From Eledone cirrhosa (Eukaryota), in contig OZ024741.1 in assembly GCA_964016885.1 (NCBI GenBank), positions 94,674,001 through 94,738,000 on the forward strand: a stretch of 64,000 nucleotides of DNA, read 5' to 3'. The position numbers and the translations under genes are program-made. The notes below the pieces were generated by a model. The model had not been told where the DNA came from. It saw only the letters and a list, made by a program, of their open reading frames with translations, and ran no database searches. Positions 1-26,647 of this stretch are shown here, in pieces; the stretch's first letter is position 1; each line of letters starts with the position of its first letter.

Positions 1-3000
1 ATGACAGTGATGGTGGGGGTGATGGAGGAAGTGGAGGTGGTGATGGCAGTGATGGTGGGGGTGATGGAGGTAGTGATGGTGGTGGTGATGGAGGAAGTGG
101 AGGTGCTGATGGCAGTGATGGTGGGGGTGATGACAGTGATGGTGGTGGTGATGGAGGAAGTGGAGGTGCTGATGGCAGTGATGGTGGGGGTGATGGAGGT
201 AGTGATGGTGATGACAGTGATGGTGGTGGTGATGGAGGAAGTGGAGGTGGTGATGGCAGTGATGGTGGGGGTGATGACAGTGATGGTGGTGGTGATGGAG
301 GAAGTGGAGGTGGTGATGACAGTGATGGTGGGGGTGATGACAGTGATGGTGGTGGTGATGGAGGAAGTGGAGGTGGTGATGGCAGTGATGGTGGGGGTGA
401 TGACAGTGATGGTGGTGGTGATGGAGGAAGTGGAGGTGGTGATGGCAGTGATGGTGGGGGTGATGGAGGTAGTGATGGTGGTGGTGATGGAGGAAGTGGA
501 GGTGGTGATGGCAGTGATGGTGGGGGTGATGGAGGTAGTGATGGTGGTGGTGATGGAGGAAGTGGAGGTGCTGATGGCAGTGATGGTGGGGGTGATGGAG
601 GTAGTGATGGTGGTGGTGATGGAGGAAGTGGAGGTGGTGATGACAGTGATGGTGCTGGTGATGGAGGAAGTGGAGGTGGTGATGGCAGTGATGGTGGGCG
701 TGATGGAGGTAGTGATGGTGGTGGTGATGGAGGAAGTGGAGGTGGTGATGACAGTGATGGTGCTGGTGATGGAGGAAGTGGAGGTGGTGATGGCAGTGAT
801 GGTGGGGGTGATGGAGGTAGTGATGGTGGTGGTGATGGAGGAAGTGGAGGTGGTGATGGCAGTGATGGTGGGGGTGATGGAGGTAGTGATGGTGGTGGTG
901 ATGGAGGAAGTGGAGGTGCTGATGGCAGTGATGGTGGGGGTGATGGAGGTAGTGATGGTGGTGGTGATGGAGGAAGTGGAGGTGGTGATGGCAGTGATGG
1001 TGGGGGTGATGACAGTGATGGTGGGGGTGATGGAGGTAGTGATGGTGATGGTGATGGAGGAAGTGGAGGTGGTGATGGCAGTGATGGTGGGGGTGATGGA
1101 GGTAGTGATGGTGGTGGTGATGGAGGAAGTGGAGATGGTGATGGCAGTGATGGTGGGGGTGATGACAGTGATGGTGGGGGTGATGGAGGTAGTGATGGTG
1201 GTGGTGATGGAGGAAGTGGAGGTGGTGATGGCAGTGATGGTGGGGGTGATGGAGGTAGTGATGGTGGTGGTGATGGAGGAAGTGGAGGTGGTGATGGCAG
1301 TGATGGTGGGGGTGATGGAGGTAGTGATGGAGGAAGTGGAGGTGGTGATGGCAGTGATGGTGGGAGTGATGGAGGAAGTGGAGGTGGTGATGGCAGTGAT
1401 GGTGGGGGTGATGACAGTGATGGTGGGGGTGATGGAGGAAGTGGAGGTGGTGATGGCAGTGATGGTGGGGGTGATGGAGGTAGTGATGGTGGTGGTGATG
1501 GAGGAAGTGGAGGTGCTGATGGCAGTGATGGTGGGGGTGATGGAGGTAGTGATGGTGGTGGTGATGGAGGAAGTGGAGGTGGTGATGGCAGTGATGGTGG
1601 GGGTGATGACAGTGATGGTGGGGGTGATGGAGGTAGTGATGGTGATGGTGATGGAGGAAGTGGAGGTGGTGATGGCAGTGATGGTGGGGGTGATGGAGGT
1701 AGTGATGGTGGTGGTGATGGAGGAAGTGGAGATGGTGATGGCAGTGATGGTGGGGGTGATGACAGTGATGGTGGGGGTGATGGAGGTAGTGATGGTGGTG
1801 GTGATGGAGGAAGTGGAGGTGGTGATGGCAGTGATGGTGGGGGTGATGGAGGTAGTGATGGTGGTGGTGATGGAGGAAGTGGAGGTGGTGATGGCAGTGA
1901 TGGTGGGGGTGATGACAGTGATGGTGGGGGTGATGGAGGAAGTGGAGGTGGTGATGGCAGTGATGGTGGGGGTGATGGAGGTAGTGATGGTGGTGGTGAT
2001 GGAGGAAGTGGAGGTGGTGATGGCAGTGATGGTGGGGGTGATGGAGGTAGTGATGGTGGTGGTGATGGAGGAATTGGAGGTGGTGATGGCAGTGATGGTG
2101 GGGGTGATGGAGGTAGTGATGGAGGAAGTGGAGGTGGTGATGGCAGTGATGGTGGGGGTGATGGAGGTAGTGATGGTGGTGGTGATGGAGGAAGTGGAGG
2201 TGGTGATGGCAGTGATGGTGGGGGTGATGGAGGTAGTGATGGAGGAAGTGGAGGTGGTGATGGCAGTGATGGTGGGGGTGATGGAGGAAGTGGAGGTGGT
2301 GATGGCAGTGATGGTGGGGGAGATGACAGTGATGGTGGTGGTGATGGAGGAAGTGGAGGTGCTGATGGCAGTGATGGTGGGGGTGATGGAGGTAGTGATG
2401 GTGATGGTGATGGAGGTGCTGATGGCAGTGATGGTGGGGGTGATGACAGTGATAGTGGTTGTGATGGGGGAAGTGGAGGTGGTGATGGCAGTGATGGTGG
2501 GGGTGATGGAGGTAGTGATGGTGGTGGTGATGGAGGAAGTGGAGGTGGTGATGGCAGTGATGGTGGGGGTGATGACAGTGATGGTGCTGGTGATGGAGGA
2601 AGTGGAGGTGGTGATGGCAGTGATGGTGGGGGTGATGACAGTGATGGTGGTGGTGGTGATGGAGGAAGTGGAGGTGGTGATGGCAGTGATGGTGGGGGTG
2701 ATGACAGTGATGGTGGTGGTGATGGAGGAAGTGGAGGTGGTGATGGCAGTGATGGTGGGGGTGATGACAGTGATGGTGGTGGTGATGGAGGAAGTGGAGG
2801 TGGTGATGGCAGTGATGGTTGGGGTGATGACAGTGATGGTGGTGGTGATGGAGGAAGTGGAGGTGGTGATGGCAGTGATGGTGGGGGTGATGACAGTGAT
2901 GGTGCTGGTGATGGAGGAAGTGGAGGTGGTGATGGCAGTGATGGTGGGGGTGATGGAGGTAGTGATGGTTATGGAGGAAGTGGAGGTGGTGATGGCAGTG

Positions 3001-6000
3001 ATGGTGGGGATGATGACAGTGATGGTGGGGGTGATGGAGGTAGTGATGGTGGTGGTGATGGAGGAAGTGGAGGTGGTGATGGCAGTGATGGTGGGGGTGA
3101 TGGAGGTAGTGATGGAGGAAGTGGAGGTGGTGATGGCAGTGATGGTGGGGGTGATGGAGGTAGTGATGGTGGTGGTGATGGAGGAAGTGGAGGTGGTGAT
3201 GGCAGTGATGGTGGGGGTGATGGAGGTAGTGATGGAGGAAGTGGAGGTGGTGATGGCAGTGATGGTGGGGGTGATGGAGGAAGTGGAGGTGGTGATGGCA
3301 GTGATGGTGGGGGAGATGACAGTGATGGTGGTGGTGATGGAGGAAGTGGAGGTGCTGATGGCAGTGATGGTGGGGGTGATGGAGGTAGTGATGGTGATGG
3401 TGATGGAGGTGCTGATGGCAGTGATGGTGGGGGTGATGACAGTGATAGTGGTTGTGATGGGGGAAGTGGAGGTGGTGATGGCAGTGATGGTGGGGGTGAT
3501 GGAGGTAGTGATGGTGGTGGTGATGGAGGAAGTGGAGGTGGTGATGGCAGTGATGGTGGGGGTGATGACAGTGATGGTGCTGGTGATGGAGGAAGTGGAG
3601 GTGGTGATGGCAGTGATGGTGGGGGTGATGACAGTGATGGTGGTGGTGGTGATGGAGGAAGTGGAGGTGGTGATGGCAGTGATGGTGGGGGTGATGACAG
3701 TGATGGTGGTGGTGATGGAGGAAGTGGAGGTGGTGATGGCAGTGATGGTGGGGGTGATGACAGTGATGGTGGTGGTGATGGAGGAAGTGGAGGTGGTGAT
3801 GGCAGTGATGGTTGGGGTGATGACAGTGATGGTGGTGGTGATGGAGGAAGTGGAGGTGGTGATGGCAGTGATGGTGGGGGTGATGACAGTGATGGTGCTG
3901 GTGATGGAGGAAGTGGAGGTGGTGATGGCAGTGATGGTGGGGGTGATGGAGGTAGTGATGGTGATGGAGGAAGTGGAGGTGGTGATGGCAGTGATGGTGG
4001 GGATGATGACAGTGATGGTGGGGGTGATGGAGGTAGTGATGGTGGTGGTGATGGAGGAAGTGGAGGTGGTGATGGCAGTGATGGTGGGGGTGATGACAGT
4101 GATGGTGCTGGTGATGGAGGACGTGATGGTGGTGATGGCAGTGATGGTGGGGGTGATGGACGTAGTGATGGTGGTGGTGATGGAGGAAGTGGAGGTGGTG
4201 ATGGCAGTGATGCTGGGGGTGATGGAGGTAGTGATGGTGGTGGTGATGGAGGAAGTGGAGGTGGTGATGGCAGTGATGGTGGGGTTGATGGAGGTAGTGA
4301 TGGTGGTGGTGATGGAGGAAGTGGAGGTGGTGATGGCAGTGATGGTGGGGGTGATGGAGGTAGTGATGGTGGTGGTGATGGAGGAAGTGGAGGTGGTGAT
4401 GGCAGTGATGGTGGGGGTGATGACAGTGATGGTGCTGGTGATGGAGGAAGTGGAGGTGGTGATGGCAGTGATGATGGGGGTGATGGAGGTAGTGATGGTG
4501 GTGGTGATGGAGGAAGTGATGGTGGTGGTGATGGAGGAAGTGGAGGTGGTAATGGCAGTGATGGTGGGGGTGATGACAGTGATGGTGGTGGTGATGGAGG
4601 AAGTGGAGGTGGTGATGGCAGTGATGGTGGGGGTGATGACAGTGATGGTGCTGGTGATGGAGGAAGTGGAGGTGGTGATGGCAGTGATGGTGGGGGTGAT
4701 GGAGGTAGTGATGGTGGTGGTGATGGAGGAAGTGGAGGTGGTGATGGCAGTGATGGTGGGGGTGATGACAGTGATGGTGCTGGTGATGGAGGAAGTGGAG
4801 GTGGTGATGGCAGTGATGATGGGGGTGATGGAGGTAGTGATGGTGGTGGTGATGGAGGAAGTGATGGTGGTGGTGATGGAGGAAGTGGAGGTGGTGATGG
4901 CAGTGATGGTGGGGGTGATGGAGGTAGTGATGGTGGTGGTGATGGAGGAAGTGGAGGTGGTGATGGCAGTGATGGTGGGGGTGATGACAGTGATGGTGGT
5001 GGTGATGGAGGAAGTGGAGGTGGTGATGGCAGTGATGGTGGGGGTGATGGAGGTAGTGATGGTGGTGGTGATGGAGGAAGTGGAGGTGGTGATGGCAGTG
5101 ATGGTGGGGGTGATGACAGTGATGGTGGTGGTGATGGAGGAAGTGGAGGTGGTGATGGCAGTGATGGTGGGGGTGTTGGAGGTAGTGATGGAGGAAGTGG
5201 AGGTGGTGATGGCAGTGATGGTGGGGGTGTTGGAGGTAGTGATGGAGGAAGTGGAGGTGGTGATGGCAGTGATGGTGGGGGTGATGGAGGTAGTGATGGT
5301 GGTGGTGATGGAGGAAGTGGAGGTGGTGATGGCAGTGATGGTGGGGGTGATGACAGTGATGGTGGTGGTGATGGAGGAAGTGGAGGTGGTGATGGCAGTG
5401 ATGGTGGGGGTGATGACAGTGATGGTGGTGGTGATGGAGGAAGTGGAGGTGGTGATGACAGTGATGGTGGTGGTGATGGAGGAAGTGGAGGTGGTGATGG
5501 CAGTGATGGTGGGGGTGATGGACGTAATGATGGTGGTGGTGATGGAGGAAGTGGAGGTGGTGATGGCAGTGATGGTGGGGGTGATGACAGTGATGGTGGT
5601 GGTGATGGAGGAAGTGGAGGTGGTGATGGCAGTGATGGTGGGGGTGATGGAGGTAGTGATGGTGGTGGTGATGGAGGAAGTGGAGGTGGTGATGGCAGTG
5701 ATGGTGGGGGTGATGGAGGTAGTGATGGTGGTGGTGATGGAGGAAGTGGAGATGGTGATGACAGTGATGATGGTGGTGATGGAGGAAGTGGAGGTGGTGA
5801 TGGCAGTGATGGTGGGGGTGATGGAGGAAGTGGAGGTGGTGATGGCAGTGATGGTGGGGTGATGACAGTGATGGTGGGGGTGATGGAGGAAGTGGAGGTG
5901 GTGATGGCAGTGATGGTGCTGGTGATGGAGGAAGTGGAGGTGGTGATGGCAGTGATGGTGGGGGTGATGGCAGTGATGGTGGGGGTGATGACAGTGATGA

Positions 6001-7300
6001 TGGTGGTGAATGAGGAAGTGGAGGTGGTGATGGCAGTGATGGTGGGGGTGATGGCAGTGATGGTGGGGGTGATGGAGGAAGTGGAGGTGGTGATGGCAGT
6101 GATGGTGGGGTGATGACAGTGATGGTGCTGGTGATGGAGGAAGTGGAGGTGGTGATGGCAGTGATGGTGGGGGTGATGACAGTGATGGTGCTGGTGATGG
6201 AGGAAGTGGAGGTGGTGATGGCAGTGATGGTGGGGGTGATGACAGTGATGGTGGTGGTGATGGAGGAAGTGGAGGTGGTGATGGCAGTGATGGTGGGGTG
6301 ATGGAGGTAGTGATGGTGGTGGTGATGGAGGAAGTGGAGGTGGTGATGGCAGTGATGGTAGCATGTATTGTTGAAGGTGGTGATGGTAGTGATGGTGGGG
6401 GTAGTGGATGTGGTGGTGACAGTGGTAGTGGTGGTGATGACAGTGATGGTATGGTGATGGAGGTAGTGGAGGTGGTGATGGCAGTGATGGTGGGGGTAGT
6501 GGATGTGGTGATGACAGTGATGGTGGGGGTAGTGGATGTGGTGATGACAGTGGTAGTGGTGGTGGTGATGATGACATTGATGGTATGGTGATGGAGGTAG
6601 TGGAGGTGGTGATGATGATGACTGTGATGGTATGGTGATGGAGGTAGTGGAGGTGGTGATAGCAGTGATAGTGGTGGTGGTGGTGGTGGTGGTGATGTTG
6701 GTGGAGGTAGTGGCTGTGGAGATGACAGTGATGGTGGAGGAAGTGGAGGTGGTGATGACAGTGGTGGTGGGGGTCATGACAGTGATGGTGGTGGTGATGG
6801 AGAAAGTGGAGGTGGTGATGACAATGGTGGTGGGGTGATGACAGTGATGGTGCTGGTGATGGAGGAAGTGGAGGTGATGATGACAGTGGTGGTAGCATGT
6901 ATTGTTGAAGGTGGTGCTGGTGATGGTTTTGAGGTTTGTGGAGGTGCTGGTGCTGGTAGTGGTTGTGGTGGTGGTGGTGATGTTTGTGGAGGTATATGTG
7001 GTGATGCTGGCGCTAGTGGTTTTGATGTTGGTGGTGATATATGTGGTGGTGGTAGTGGTGAAGGTTTTGTTGTTGGTACAGATGGTGATGGTGGTGGTGG
7101 TAGTGATGGTTTTGTTGTTAATAGAGATATATATGATGGTGGTGATGGTGGTAGTGATGGTTTTATGTGGTGGTGATGATGGTTTTGTTAGTGGTGGAGG
7201 TATATATAGGTAGTTCTGATGCTGATGCTGATGGTTTTGCTGTTGGTAGAGATATTTGTGATACTGCTGGTGATGGTGGAGAAATAGATGTTGACGGTAC
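1..7300. repeat. GTG/ATG/GAG triplet-based compound minisatellite (42-bp core ATGGAGGAAGTGGAGGTGGTGATGGCAGTGATGGTGGGGGTG plus variable modules), degenerating after about 6350; runs off the left edge
   Basis: Seen directly: tandem modules whose lengths are multiples of 3. The long M/V/E-rich (+) and Pro-rich (-) ORFs are by-products of the repeat. Confidence 0.95.
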
Positions 7301-19322: not shown

Positions 19323-20883
19323 CAACCACATTTATAGTGTGGACTGGGTACTTTTTGTCATGACTCCTACACAACCACATTTACAGTGTGGGCTGGGTAC
19401 TTTTTGTCATGACTCCTACACAACCACATTTACAGTGTGGACTGGGTACTTTTTGTCATGACTCCTACACAACCACATTTACAGTGTGGACTGGGTACTT
19501 TTTGTCATGACTCCTACACAACCACATTTATAGTGTGGGCTGGGTACTTTTTGTCATGACTCCTACACAACCACATTTACAGTGTGGACTGGGTACTTTT
19601 TGTCATGACTCCTACACAACCACATTTACAGTGTGGACTGGGTACTTTTTGTCATGACTCCTACACAACCACATTTACAGTGTGGGCTAGGTGCTTTTTG
19701 TCGTGACTCCTACACAACCACATTTATAGTGTGGGCTGGGTACTTTTTGTCATGACTCCTACACAACCACATTTATAGTGTGGACTGGGTACTTTTTGTC
19801 ATGACTCCTACACAACCACATTTATAGTGTGGGCTGGGTACTTTTGTCATGACTCCTACACAACCACATTTATAGTGTGGACTGGGTACTTTTTGTCATG
19901 ACTCCTACACAACCACATTTACAGTGTGGGCTGGGTACTTTTTGTCATGACTCCTACACAACCACATTTACAGTATGGGCTAGGTGCTTTTTGTCATGAC
20001 TCCTACATAACCACATTTACAGTGTGGGCTGGGTACTTTTTGTCATGACTCCTACACAACCACATTTACAGTATGGGCTAGGTGCTTTTTGTCATGACTC
20101 CTACACAACCACATTTACAGTGTGGGCTGGGTACTTTTTGTCATGACTCCTACACAACCACATTTACAGTATGGGCTAGGTGCTTTTTGTCATGACTCCT
20201 ACACAACCACATTTACAGTGTGGGCTGGGTACTTTTTGTCATGAATCCTACACAACCACTTTACAGTGTGGACTGGGTACTTTTTGTCGTGACTCCTACA
20301 CAACCACATTTACAGTGTGGGCTAGGTGCTTTTTGTCGTGACTCCTACACAACCACATTTACAGTGTGGACTGGGTACTTTTTGTCGTGACTCCTACACA
20401 ACCACTTTACAGTGTGGGCTGGGTGCTTTTTGTCGTGACTCCTACACAACCACTTTACAGTGTGGGCTGGGTGCTTTTTGTCGTGACTCCTACACAACCA
20501 CTTTACAGTGTGGGCTGGGTGCTTTTTGTCGTGACACCTACACAACCACTTTACATTGTAGGCTGGGTGCTTTTTATCATGACTCCTACACAACCACTTT
20601 ACAGTGTGGACTGGGTGCTTTTTGTTGTGACACCTACACAACCACTTTACAGTGTGGGCTGGGTGCTTTTTGTCGTGATTCCTACACAACCACTTTACAG
20701 AGTGGGCTGGGTGCTTTTTATCATGACTCCTACACAACCACTTTATAGTGTGGGCTGGGTACTTTTTGTTGTGACACCTACACAACCACTTTACAGTGTG
20801 GGCTGGGTGCTTTTTTTCGTGACACCTACACAACCACTTTACAGTGTGGGCTGGGTGCTTTTTGTCGTGACACCTACACAACC
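19323..20883. repeat. 49/48-bp tandem minisatellite (about 32 units) expanded inside an RTE 3' UTR
   Basis: Unit ACAACCAC(A)TTTACAGTGTGGGCTGGGT(A/G)CTTTTTGTC(A/G)TGACTCCTAC with no spacers; followed at about 20884-20985 by the reverse-complement end of RTE ORF2. Confidence 0.93.
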
Positions 20884-21539
20884 AGCCTGTCCTCAAGAAA
20901 GATGTATGGGAGGGGGTGCAGGCTATATATGTATGTATGTTTCAGCTTCAGCCCATGGGAAGGCAGGTCTTCTGTATTACTGCAACATAATATAAACACA
21001 TATTTTTCTATATGTAAAATATTAAACTTACATATTTGCTTAATTGCATATAAAAGACACATATATTTATATATGTGTATTTATCTACAATAGCCATATG
21101 CAATACATACACATGTATAGATAAGCAATATATCCTATAGGTATACATGAATTGCAATAAATTAAACTCATGCCACAATCTTCAGGGAATTGTGCCGGAG
21201 TAAACAGTGGTAAACATGATAAGAGAGAAATTTTGTAATATACAAAACCTGTCAACATTGAAGAGTGGATAAACTTTCTAACATCTGTTTACTGCACTGG
21301 ACTTCATTGGTGGATATCTTGATGGAATTTGTACTATATTGGGCTAACTTAGTTTCATCATAATAAACCTCCAGCTCATGTAAACAGAATAAGTCAGCAT
21401 ACATGCATAAATGTGTATATGTGTATATGTGTATGTATGCATATGTATGTGTGTGTATGTATGTATATATGTATGTATGTATATATGTAGGAAATGGTAT
21501 CTTGATGGAATATGTGCTAGCTATATTTGGCTAGTATCG

Positions 21540-21810: not shown

Positions 21811-22005
21811 AGTGAAGTGAACAGTTTTTAGGCGGGAGGTGGTCGTCAGTCATCCGTCTAATTGGTTATTTGGTTATTATTTACTGGTACATAGTCAAAC
21901 AAGGAATAAAGAACATACCTCAATTTTATGTTATAAAAACATTTTTTATATAGGAGCAATTACAGAATATATACAAATACATTAGGGCTCCTCGGTTTGG
22001 GATAT

Positions 22006-22373
22006 TGTAGCAGGAGTTGCCTCCCTTGTTGTGACACTCACATCACCAATAGAGTAACGCTCTCTAGACGGGAAGTAGCTGGAGTTGCTTCCCATTGGGG
22101 TGATAGAACCCTTTTTATCACTTCCGGCAGAACCCTATAAAACGAATAACTTTCAGCTCCCTTTCTCTCATTTGCCTTTTTGGCTCCTGGCCGTCTTCGG
22201 TCAGGCGCGTTCGCCTGGCAACCAAAACAGTAACTAATAACTTTGCTTCATTCTTTCATCTATTCATTGACATGTCAACTATACTGTTCTATATATCCAC
22301 AAATTGTTAATTAAATATTATACACACAAACCACGTCTCTTGTTATATTCATACACACCAGTATTTTGTTATA
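22006..22373 (+). repeat. LTR-A (368 bp, complete)
   Basis: TGTAGCA...TGTTATA, followed by AG and a PBS. Confidence 0.88.
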
Positions 22374-22375
22374 AG

Positions 22376-22387
22376 TGGTGACCCCGA
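22376..22387 (+). promoter_or_regulatory. Primer-binding site TGGTGACCCCGA
   Basis: TGG-initial motif 2 nt after the LTR end, typical of Gypsy-type PBSs; primer tRNA not identified. Confidence 0.75.
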
Positions 22388-23688
22388 AAAAAGAAAAAAA
22401 ATAGCAGAATCTGGTGTTGTGTGAGTAACATTACGAATACGCAGCAAATTTTATTGATAAACTATGAAAATACGCAGTCAAAGAAACGAACACACGCACA
22501 TGTGAAATTCTCGTTCAGACAGACTCTTTTTCTCTCACGCATCAACTAACTGTCGCATTTCACTGTATATATATATATATATATGTTTTTCATTTCTTTC
22601 TTACAACGAACACTTTAAAAACAAACAAAAAAAAAAAGAAATTTGATTTTTTTTTTAAACATTTCAACATGAACTTTTATTTTCGATGAATCTCAACTAT
22701 TGTTTTTTTTCATTGTTTTCTTCATCGTTCAAGTTTTTTTTAAAGTTCACAAAAAAAAAAAAAATTGAACTCGCCATATTTGTTATACTAAGTGAAGCCT
22801 TTCTTTCTTTTTCATCATTGTCACTTTCACACACACATTTTTTCAAAATGGCTGCCAACGACCTGTTGCACTATCATTTTCGCGCCATTTTCTCGCGCAT
22901 TAGAAATATTTTTTTTTTCAACTTAACCTTGTTTTGGCACGTGTAGGCAGCAGAATTCTCGACTCACGGAGATGGCCGCACGCCAGAGATAACGTTTCTC
23001 GCCAAGGATTCTCCAGCCTTAAGCTATATTCTCCTATTTGCCGGTTTAAAAAATTTACTACGTAAATTTGCCGTTGAAAACTGCGCATTTATTCAGAATG
23101 CTTATTTCTTTGGTCGCTGGCCTCTTGACCCTTCCAGTTCAATGCATTCTCAACATCGACCATCAACTTCGGCTGTTATTTCTAGCACTTTGCGCAACTC
23201 ATTTTTTCTGAAAAAATTTTTACTGTGAATTTAAACATCGAATACGCTCACTCCGCGAGACAACAACATCAACAGCAACACAGCTTCATCAACAACCAAA
23301 ACCAGCAGAACAAGCCAGAGAATTTATTTTTGCAGCACTCTTCCTGTGAGAAAATCCATTCGGAGGTTGGAAATTTCACGTTATACCACAGAACAGAAAC
23401 CACCTGCATTCATTCTCTGGAACACACTTTCTTTCCTGCTGTCATGTGATTGCACACCTGTGAACTGTATGTTGAACATTTGAACTTTGAGCTCTTCTCT
23501 TACTTTGATTGCATTGTATCTTTGGGTGATGGATAAATAGATGTCCAGTCGTTCTCTGGCCAAGAGCGGTTGGCTACCTTGATATCTATCATTGATTATT
23601 GCAAACATTAGTTTTTTCGTAATTTTCATGCCTGTTACAACATTCTCGCCAATTACTACATACATATTTCATTCGATTTTTATATTTT

Positions 23689-23705
23689 AAAAATCTGGTG
23701 GGAGG
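23689..23705 (+). promoter_or_regulatory. Polypurine tract region AAAAATCTGGTGGGAGG
   Basis: Lies 3 nt before LTR-B and is identical to the outer element's PPT. Confidence 0.8.
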
Positions 23706-23708
23706 TAA

Positions 23709-23907
23709 TGTAGCAGGAGTTGCCTCCCTTGTTGTGACACTCACATCACCAATAGAGTAACGCTCTCTAGACGGGAAGTAGCTGGAGTTGCTTCCTGTTG
23801 GGGTGATAGAACCCTTTTTATCACTTCTGGCAGAACCCTATAAAACGAATAACTTTCAGCTTCCTTTCTCTAATTTGCCTTTTCGGCTCCTGGCCTTCGG
23901 CCAGCCG
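23709..23907 (+). repeat. LTR-B (5' ~200 bp only)
   Basis: Near-identical to 22006-22207, then breaks off. Confidence 0.88.
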
Positions 23908-23912
23908 TGATA

Positions 23913-24257
23913 AATATAACAAGGAGACGTGGTTTGTGTGTATAATATTTAATTAACAATTTGTGGATATATAGAACAGTATAGTTGACATGTCAATGAA
24001 TAGATGAAAGAATGAAGCAAAGTTATTAGTTACTGTTTTGGTTGCCAGGCGAACGCGCCTGACCGAAGACAGCCAGGAGCCAAAAAGGCAAATGAGAGAA
24101 AGGGAGCTGAAAGTTATTCGTTTTATAGGGTTCTGCCGGAAGTGATAAAAAGGGTTCTATCACCCCAACGGGAAGCAACTCCAGCTATTTCCCGTCTAGA
24201 GAGCGTTACTCTATTGGTGATGTGAGTGTCACAACAAGAGAGGCAACTCCTGCTACA
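23913..24257 (-). repeat. LTR-C (inverted, lacks only the last ~25 bp)
   Basis: Reverse complement of about 22006-22349 with few substitutions. Confidence 0.9.
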
Positions 24258-24789
24258 ATATATTTAAGTCGTCATATACTGCCGCATGATGTGAGGTCAT
24301 CCTTTGGATCACTGCTGGTGATTATAGCACTTCTATTGGGTCCAAGCTCTCATTGTCCAAGTATTTTTCAGCTACTGACGTCAGAATGTGACGTCAGAAC
24401 TAAGGGCAGTTAATCGACTGTTTTCACTGTCGACCCTAGCTGGCGTGATCTTCTACATGGCCTCCCACCAGATTTTTAGAAAATTAAATAAAAATCGGTT
24501 CATCAAATCATGTATGTAGAAAAACCGATTAGCAACCAGCAAAAATCCCAAACCAAGGAACAATCAGCCCAACCGAGCATGAAGGGCACAACAAATTTCA
24601 AAAATACATATTAAAAAAGCATGCAAGAACGTGAAAGGAAAAAAAAAGAAACAAATGTAATAAAATGTAAATACAATTTCCTAAAAGTTCCAAAAGTCAC
24701 TACAGGATTAAAGCACCGCACAATAGCAGTTTAAAAATATACCGTGCTACACAGTTTTTTTGGCCAATGAACCCTCCGACCGGAACAGG

Positions 24790-26230
24790 TCATAGTCTTA
24801 TATCTTGGTGATGGGGGGACGAAGAAGCAGGTGTGTGTGCGAAAGAAAAAGACGGGAGCGTTTGTGGCTCAGGTGCGATAGCATCTGTATCCAAATGTGC
24901 TCGTTTGAGTCTATCAATCGAAACCGTCTCTCTGGAACCCTTAATGTCTACAGTGAAATATTTCTCTGAACGAGCTAATACACAGTAGGGTCCAGAGTAC
25001 GGTTGTGTGAGAGGTGGTTTCACGGCATCGTTTCTCACAGACACATGGGTCCACGAGGCAATATCCCTTGGGACTGCAAATTGTACAGTTTGCTTCCTCG
25101 TATCCATCGGCGGCAGGTCCTGAAAATAAGAACGCAGATGGGATACATAGGAAAGCGGATCTTGTTTAGCAAGATCGACAGGGGGAAGCATTTGCCCAGG
25201 TAACGCTAGAGAAGCACCATATAACAATTCGGCCAGGGAGAACCCAAGTTCCTCCTTTATTGTTGAACGAATCCCCAACAACACAATAGGGAGGTACTCG
25301 CTCCAGCGCGTAGAGTCAGGAGAAGTCCGTAGAGCAGCTTTCAGTTGTCGGTGGAAGCGCTCCACCATTCCATTAGAGGCAGGATGATATGCAGTAGTTC
25401 GGATGCGTTTAGCGCCGATGATCTTCGTCAATTGATGGAAGAGATTCGACTCAAACTGCCTTCCACGGTCCATGGTAATTGACGTTGGCACTCCATATCG
25501 AGCGATCCATCCAGACACAAGGGCACGCGCTGTCGTCTCAGCAGTGATATCTTTCAAGGGGATGGCTTCAGGCCATCGCGAAAAACAATCGATTACCGTC
25601 AATAAGTAATTGTAACCACCACTGATGGGTCAAGGTCCCACGATGTCCACATGAATGTGGCGAAACCAGGCGTCCGGGTTACTAAAAGTACCAAGAGGAG
25701 TCTTAATATGTCTATGAACTTTCGATTTCTGGCAAGCAACACAGGAACGGCACCAAACAGTAATTTCACGTCTCATATTTGGCCAGAAGAATCTAGCCGT
25801 TATGAGTTTTACTGTGGCAGAAGATCCTGGATGTGAAATGCCACGCAAAACAAGAAACACAGTTCGACGATGGTTCAACGGAACAAAAGGGCATGGCGTA
25901 TCCAGAGACGTCGCAGAGGATCCATCCATCTGCGGTCGGTAATGGTAGGTATTTCATCCTGCAATTCACAAATTCTGTCGATGTAACATCCAACGATTCG
26001 AGGGTAGGCTGATCGGCTGCCAAGCGATTCAAATCTATGTCATCGGACGACGAGATTGAAGTAATCGGTAAATGAGACAGGGCGTCGGCCGCTGTATTCA
26101 TAGAACCCGGAATATGTTGAAAATCATTTGTAAACTGATAGATGAGGTCGAGATATCTAGTTTCTCTAGGCGAGTATTTGTCTGCCTTTGCCTGCAAGGT
26201 GAATGTCAACGGCTTGTGGTCCGTAAGCAT
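24790..26230 (-). pseudogene. Gypsy pol fragment: RNase H end, integrase Zn-binding region and DDE core; disrupted
   Basis: TDHKPL, SHPG...[36 protein letters not shown] and [12 protein letters not shown]; frameshift near 25900 and stop at 25630. Confidence 0.93.
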
Positions 26231-26647
26231 TTTAAGGCCATTTTCCCTGCTAAAGGTGTTAGCCTTGCAGACCACATGACAGTTTTCTTCATTTTGACCT
26301 ACCCTCTGTATTTCTCTCTTACCAGTAGACCCTTGACTTTCATTTCTTATTTATCTGTCTTTCGTGGTCTTCTTTTTCATCTACTTCCTTCCACAGTCAC
26401 TAATCAACTATTATAGGACCATCTTATAACAAAGATAAAAATGATGATCAATAAAATATGTATTGTTAAAGAAAGATGTAGCATACATGATCAAGATTGT
26501 GGTGGACTAGATTATGTACTGAATATAGTTCAGTAGTTCCTTGTTCCAAATTCAAATCCTTTCACACATCATTCAGAGCATTTTGTACGGTTTTTATAGA
26601 ACAATCTAAAAATTGAAATCAGTGTTATACAAAATCAGAACACTTAC

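Follow-up and report, generated by a model that had tools for sequence, protein, structure and literature searches.

An LTR retroelement of Eledone cirrhosa bounded by two U3 ends, and nine further insertions of this form in the same genome

The element at positions 22006 to 24257 of the stretch analyzed here (64,000 nucleotides of the Eledone cirrhosa genome, contig OZ024741.1, positions 94,674,001 to 94,738,000 of assembly GCA_964016885.1; hereafter the window) is a dead copy of a CsRn1-like Gypsy LTR element that is non-autonomous, and each of its two termini is a U3 (left) end. In this genome, we observed ten loci, the window and nine others, each with two U3 ends that face inward and with an exact 4-bp target site duplication (TSD), and these fall into two related families. 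In the reading toward which we lean, the window copy is best accounted for as one of a class of mis-transfer products that arose independently and repeatedly, the ten loci being its members. We likewise consider it fairly probable that plus-strand strong-stop DNA mis-annealed before insertion and that the resulting two-U3 DNA was inserted by integrase in one step.

The layout proposed in a preliminary description of the window, namely LTR-A, PBS, a non-coding interior, PPT, a partial LTR-B and an inverted LTR-C, was confirmed with the following coordinates.

22002-22005: left TSD copy, ATAT
22006-22373, forward strand: LTR-A, complete 5' LTR (368 bp), TGT...ATA
22374-23708, forward strand: non-coding interior of 1335 bp, with no coding sign
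22376-22387, forward strand: PBS of 12 nt, preceded by AG, matching the tRNA-Trp PBS consensus given for CsRn1-like elements in the available text of PMC2582038
23697-23708, forward strand: polypurine tract (PPT)
23709-23908, forward strand: LTR-B, 3' LTR, broken after 200 bp at a predicted GC hairpin (3' arm)
23907-23910: inversion junction, read either as 2-bp microhomology (GT) minus one base or as blunt plus one base
23910-24257, reverse strand: LTR-C, inverted, LTR positions 347 to 1 (348 bp), the second U3 end
24258-24261: right TSD copy, ATAT

Whereas canonical LTR insertions have direct LTRs and end in U3 on one side and U5 on the other, both termini of the window element are U3. LTR-C is 98% identical to LTR-A over 352 columns.

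The insertion lies within the 3' LTR of an older Gypsy element, the remains of which occupy the reverse strand.

21827-22001, reverse strand: distal part of the host 3' LTR (an element of the TGTAGAAG...AAA family), separated from the proximal part by the insertion; in 21 of 24 other copies it directly adjoins 24258-24457, with a 4-bp overlap
24262-24457, reverse strand: proximal (U3) part of the host 3' LTR
24458-26400, reverse strand: host PPT and broken integrase/RNase H region (rve, Integrase_H2C2), 5'-truncated near 26.4 kb, with the broken integrase at 24790-25953

The host LTR runs from 24457 to 24258 and continues from 22005 to 21827. When each flank was aligned separately to the 24 other copies of this LTR, the two overlapped by exactly the 4 TSD bases in 21; the remaining three show local indels or divergence at the overlap. 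Because the flanks abut with this 4-bp overlap, ATAT is a true duplication at a single pre-insertion site, which bears out the clean ATAT/ATAT duplication put forward earlier and settles the contiguity of the outer flanks that had been named as a check. Sequence just before the PPT is also common to the host element and the family nested in it: positions 24450-24488 match 23678-23716 at 85% over 39 bp, up to and including the PPT, which suggests that the two use related machinery.

The parent family of the window element is non-coding, non-autonomous and ∼2.07 kb long. Its exact 18-base LTR start occurs 279 times in the genome, and with one variant base allowed there are 479 occurrences after C, G or T and 125 after BA. 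The interior of the window element is 90 to 96% identical to 29 other copies, of which 20 have two LTRs that could be parsed. An exact 4-bp TSD flanks 15 of these 20 full-length copies, the others having one TSD mismatch, a parsing offset or no match. The absence of a terminal CA from the only complete U5 end had been regarded as a defect. However, among the 80 LTRs aligned to their end (from 86 other LTR copies of the family), 76 end in TA, the alignment stops one base short in 4, and none ends in CA; TGT...ATA ends are, moreover, published for the CsRn1 clade (available text of PMC2582038). The "missing CA" is therefore a trait of the clade, and a defective U5 end was rejected as the cause of the two-U3 structure, since normal copies end in TA and most of them nevertheless have exact TSDs.

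The coding partner of the family is represented by an autonomous-type copy, L120, which has interrupted frames and contains a CHCC Gag motif (C-X2-H-X9-C-X3-C), a protease motif, RT, RNase H and integrase (rve). The 3' interior and PPT of the family match L120 at 84 to 91%, and the best solved-structure match of the L120 RT is Ty3 (E = 2.6e-76). The LTRs of L120 and of the host family have AAA ends. The available text of PMC2582038 describes CsRn1-like elements as having a 4-bp TSD, a tRNA-Trp PBS and LTR ends of the form TGT...AAA or TGT...ATA. Our elements share all these features with the CsRn1 clade of Ty3/Gypsy (CsRn1, PwRn1 and AgCR; PMC2582038), and through L120 also the CHCC Gag motif and the protease, RT, RNase H and integrase domains, the window element itself being non-coding. 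In contrast to that clade, the family here is non-coding throughout its ∼2.07 kb and the window copy has two U3 ends; on the shared traits, membership in the clade is putative. Direct LTRs, a PBS, a PPT, a non-coding interior, hundreds of copies and a 3' region in common with an autonomous-type partner are features of normal family members. We take the family to resemble the non-autonomous LTR elements of TRIM/LARD type in these respects, with the difference that the window copy has an added inverted LTR and has lost its U5 terminus. In eight copies (L013, L018, L024, L088 and L090-L093), the PBS after the 5' LTR extends as a longer tRNA-Trp-like copy, with about 47 extra bases ahead of the usual interior start, which could represent tRNA-primer read-through that was inherited.

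The ten U3-U3 loci are given below, with the length of the element and its TSD.

Window: TSD ATAT
L107: 2171 bp, TSD GGCT
L108: 1228 bp, TSD AATC
L111: 502 bp, TSD GATG
L112: 223 bp, TSD AAGG
L113: 620 bp, TSD ATAG
L115: 791 bp, TSD CTAC
L122 (509-733): 225 bp, TSD GGTA
L123, host family: 488 bp, TSD GTTG
L127 (G000:C1:210448956-210449297): 342 bp, TSD GTTC, found via the L122 junction

The arms of these loci are 77 to 98% identical and often come from different subfamilies. The census covered 485 of 604 non-PPT LTR starts and 100 of 243 host-family starts, with close convergent pairs chosen by eye, and is therefore a lower bound. In a simulation with 420 uniformly placed starts, 0.07 convergent pairs within 3 kb were expected by chance, a value that is too low for real insertions, which cluster; the TSD matches are independent of this simulation. 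Seven elements have both ends among the 485 listed starts, corresponding to about 1.5% of insertions, and allowing for unlisted ends the share is perhaps 2 to 3%, a rough frequency. Two of the 12 convergent pairs examined, L114 and L124, proved to be U3-U5 units with their own TSDs, the wide convergent pairs L118/L119 and L120/L121 were separate elements, and two of the three divergent pairs, L116 and L117, contained solo LTRs with TSDs of their own. The L124 unit (346-5958; G000:C1:223530745-223536357) belongs to the host family, has U3 and U5 termini and TSD CTAG, and carries a whole inverted element inside its LTR; it is possibly an integrated autointegration or nested product. Tail-to-tail LTR junctions were also seen at L042/L109 (5291-5824) and L126 (5454-5967), with one arm of each ending at LTR position 342; no second U3 end lies within about 5 kb of either, and we left both uncounted, although they are possibly interrupted U3-U3 insertions. 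No inverted pair was present among the 43 listed U5 ends, too few for a count of U5-U5 insertions, and a pattern search for short fold-backs matched L107 alone.

We then asked whether these loci are copies of one another. A 25-mer spanning the window junction has a single match in the genome at up to 2 mismatches, and in a search with a 101-base junction query only the window spans positions 1 to 101 of the query among the 40 candidates that were scored out of 289. The L115 junction is likewise unique, and the remaining junctions differ from one another with one exception: a single 26-mer occurs at both L122 (509-733) and L127, with different TSDs. One earlier suggestion was that the window element belongs to a family of LTR-derived elements that have inverted termini and propagate in this form; integrase would move such elements as DNA. 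The shared 26-mer is what such a family would leave behind, and we nevertheless regard this origin as highly improbable, given that the two loci are structurally different and several substitutions apart, a pattern that fits recurrence at one microhomology; the 26-mer itself could reflect either recurrent microhomology or shared ancestry. A TIR/MITE-like family should leave multiple copies that share one structure but not their TSDs; no such set emerged. The genome-wide junction search had been meant to separate a spreading family from a one-off event, and neither description holds: the window junction is unique, and there are nine further U3-U3 insertions.

An assembly artefact, in which a fold-back chimeric read had produced the inversion, was considered as well. 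In contigs of four runs (at most two samples, from one study), searched at 95% and 100% identity, no listed piece crosses the inversion junction and none crosses the junction at the right TSD, and the absence of the junction at 100% identity is what an artefact would predict. These contigs do reach over the unique flank on the left and the end of the host LTR. They also lack the private alleles of LTR-B and LTR-C, however, and may thus derive from another individual without the insertion, or the records concerned may have been filtered. In a read-run search, six runs matched, none with half of the query words. A chimeric read would moreover have to account for arms that differ by 2% and bear private CpG-type changes, for an exact TSD at a site that is contiguous in other copies, and for nine other loci with TSDs of their own; we consider it scarcely credible.

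The alleles of the three LTRs bear on how the window copy arose. LTR-A, LTR-B and LTR-C all carry 65G, which is rare elsewhere (2 of 86 other LTRs), and because of this shared rare allele they evidently come from one lineage. LTR-A and LTR-C alone share an 11-bp deletion (0/86 others), 176T (1/86) and 196T (8/86), and LTR-B carries the undeleted allele at the deletion site. Of the earlier statement that the three LTRs differ by only a few substitutions, pointing to similar age, the CpG-type site is confirmed, reading CCCA, CCTG and CCCG as described; the three are not equidistant, since LTR-A and LTR-C share alleles that are absent from LTR-B. These two differ in turn at U5 sites 333 and 345, where both alleles are common in the family. 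Normal 5'/3' LTR pairs (n = 20) behave similarly, with 46 differences at 16 polymorphic U5 columns compared to 2 at 30 polymorphic U3 columns (Fisher P = 5e-20, an exaggerated value because columns that are linked were counted as independent). In these 20 full-length copies (L077-L105), U3 alleles are the same within a pair, the U5 haplotypes are often different common ones, and in about half of the pairs the LTR lengths differ by ∼13 to 30 bp, mostly in a GC hairpin region with a 14-bp period. Because its U5 differences from LTR-A mirror those of normal pairs, LTR-C looks like a sister strong-stop DNA of LTR-A rather than a later copy of it. Arm-to-arm gene conversion after insertion could also be the source of the alleles common to the two. 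The U5 mosaicism of normal copies further means that dating by LTR pairs is biased in the parent family, with age overestimated.

The rare alleles common to LTR-A and LTR-C would also be expected if a normal copy had inserted first and a later template switch during repair or replication had replaced the 3' half of LTR-B by an inverted copy of LTR-A, returning to the host sequence at the palindromic ATAT. Such a return would be made easier in the window by the palindromic TSD and by the terminal 11 bases, 9 of which match between the two possible ends. The TSD is non-palindromic at the nine other U3-U3 loci, however, several of which have arms only 77 to 90% alike and from different subfamilies, so that the class as a whole does not need a rearrangement route. 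In the window itself, a copy made from LTR-A would not be expected to carry the common family alleles at the two U5 sites. We regard this later rearrangement as improbable.

Plus-strand strong-stop ends are present at the junctions of sister loci. At L115, an LTR with unprocessed AG is fused bluntly to an inverted LTR followed by AG and an 18- to 19-nt PBS; since a full-length PBS occurs in other copies, that of L115 could be native to its subfamily. At L111, the 9-nt PBS tail of an LTR overlaps by 9 bases with its complement in the U3 of another LTR, which is of autonomous type and 96.5% identical to L120; at L113, a short piece from the start of the PBS is retained where the U3 is complementary to it. 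Two U3 pieces are joined by microhomologies of 7 bp in L112 and 5 bp in L122. In L107, a same-polarity join with about 10 bp of microhomology connects U3 to pol sequence 95.5% identical to L120; further on, pol is joined directly to a U3 start, and there is a fold-back at a 12-bp palindrome. Extra U3-to-internal joins are found in both L107 and L127. These U3-U3 junctions fit plus-sense strands of co-packaged templates joined tail to tail, and arms of mixed subfamily are expected because the templates would be co-packaged.

For the window, we carried the mechanism over from the sister loci because microhomology at its own junction amounts to only 2 bp and a PBS tail is absent there. LTR-C would be strong-stop DNA that ended near LTR position 347-349, annealed by microhomology to another plus-sense strand in place of the PBS, and primed backward synthesis at LTR position ∼200 through the U3 of LTR-B, the PPT, the interior and the PBS. 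The source of LTR-A would have been a sister strong-stop DNA, from the same donor minus strand, that completed the left end, and LTR-A and LTR-C would share alleles absent in LTR-B because both came from that strand; integrase would then have inserted the two-U3 molecule. The available texts offer partial precedents: identical LTRs are the product of the standard reverse-transcription model (PMC6894440), inter-template plus-strand transfer has been proposed for asymmetric HIV LTRs (PMC9278108), and alt-EJ has been proposed to mediate second-strand transfer via PBS microhomology (bioRxiv 10.1101/2022.09.25.509424). In our case, the join may have been made either by reverse transcriptase or by host alt-EJ. 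Against mis-transfer, at several sister loci both strands must have lost 3' flaps, a loss that suits host end-joining and could postdate integration. On sequence alone, joining may have preceded or followed insertion.

The strongest competitor places the joining after insertion. Two separate DNAs, one a full-length cDNA and the other a duplex intermediate of the 3' LTR, would each give a U3 end to one intasome, after which the inner ends would be resected and joined by the host. Two-donor concerted integration is routine in vitro, which counts in its favor; this route predicts an identical TSD and subfamilies mixed in the same way, and the junctions, ranging from blunt (L115) to 2 to 12 bp of microhomology with both ends trimmed, are typical of alt-EJ. 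It requires, however, a double-stranded U3 end on the second donor and a chromosome break that was survived, while TSDs are exact at all ten loci and the window flanks are contiguous. The extra U3-to-internal joins (L107 and L127) and the same-polarity pol jump would be easier to make before genomic insertion, and in the window an additional step is needed to explain why LTR-A equals LTR-C but not LTR-B. We thus consider it rather unlikely, although clearly ahead of the other alternatives. Of the origin initially suggested, a single integrase-type insertion via two U3 ends with a true TSD is upheld, and the end-joining of two cDNAs is kept as the main rival.

As a retroelement with inverted terminal repeats, the window element presumably resembles DIRS-1. 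DIRS-1, however, relies on a tyrosine recombinase, is not known to make a TSD of this kind and spreads in the inverted-repeat form, unlike the window element, which lies in an exact 4-bp TSD, shows no propagation and has a partner (L120) that encodes an rve integrase, a member of a DDE integrase family. Mis-annealed strong-stop DNA, which we favor, is closer to what is described for asymmetric-LTR HIV-1 proviruses, in which plus-strand strong-stop DNA of one template completes another and the LTRs are unequal; in the available description, however, those LTRs are direct with U3 and U5 termini, whereas the transfer in the window would be of inverted polarity, leaving U3 at both termini (PMC9278108). 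Autointegration in Ty1 and SISYPHUS likewise produces inversions within the particle, comparable to the U3-to-internal joins in L107 and L127, but the products are known, from the available text, as circles without integration, and the window holds a linear product in an exact TSD (PMC7197481).

Since LTR finders demand direct repeats, U3-U3 insertions are likely to be overlooked or taken for two events. Our literature search, which covered few subscription journals, found among the papers listed no account of genomic U3-U3 insertions with TSDs; in vitro two-donor integration and aberrant proviruses have been described in journals of that kind. Two-U3 insertions form a countable fossil class, which shows that an intasome in vivo can do without a U5 end. 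Their junctions would sample the sites where plus-strand strong-stop DNA anneals upon failed second-strand transfer, so that RT mispriming and host alt-EJ can be tested against each other. Inverted-terminal units bounded by integrase sites are also a possible start of DNA-transposon-like behavior. In a wider reading, to which we give slightly less than an even chance, Gypsy integrases routinely insert mis-transferred plus-strand products via two U3 ends in germ lines, at 1 to 3% of insertions. The genome would then record how faithfully, and by what chemistry, second-strand transfer proceeds, and TIR-bounded, TSD-flanked units would be made repeatedly as raw material for a one-step passage from an LTR retrotransposon to a Ginger-like DNA transposon; if so, some of these units carry RT and integrase sequence (L107). 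In the boldest form of this reading, some short U3-U3 units (the L122/L127 junction) could conceivably have been re-mobilized already.

The window further contains two tandem arrays. Positions 1-6900 are a long G-rich trinucleotide-based array with a GC skew of about 0.9, and positions 19323-20884 hold 32 copies of a 48- to 49-bp unit at 94% identity, which is also scattered elsewhere in the window.
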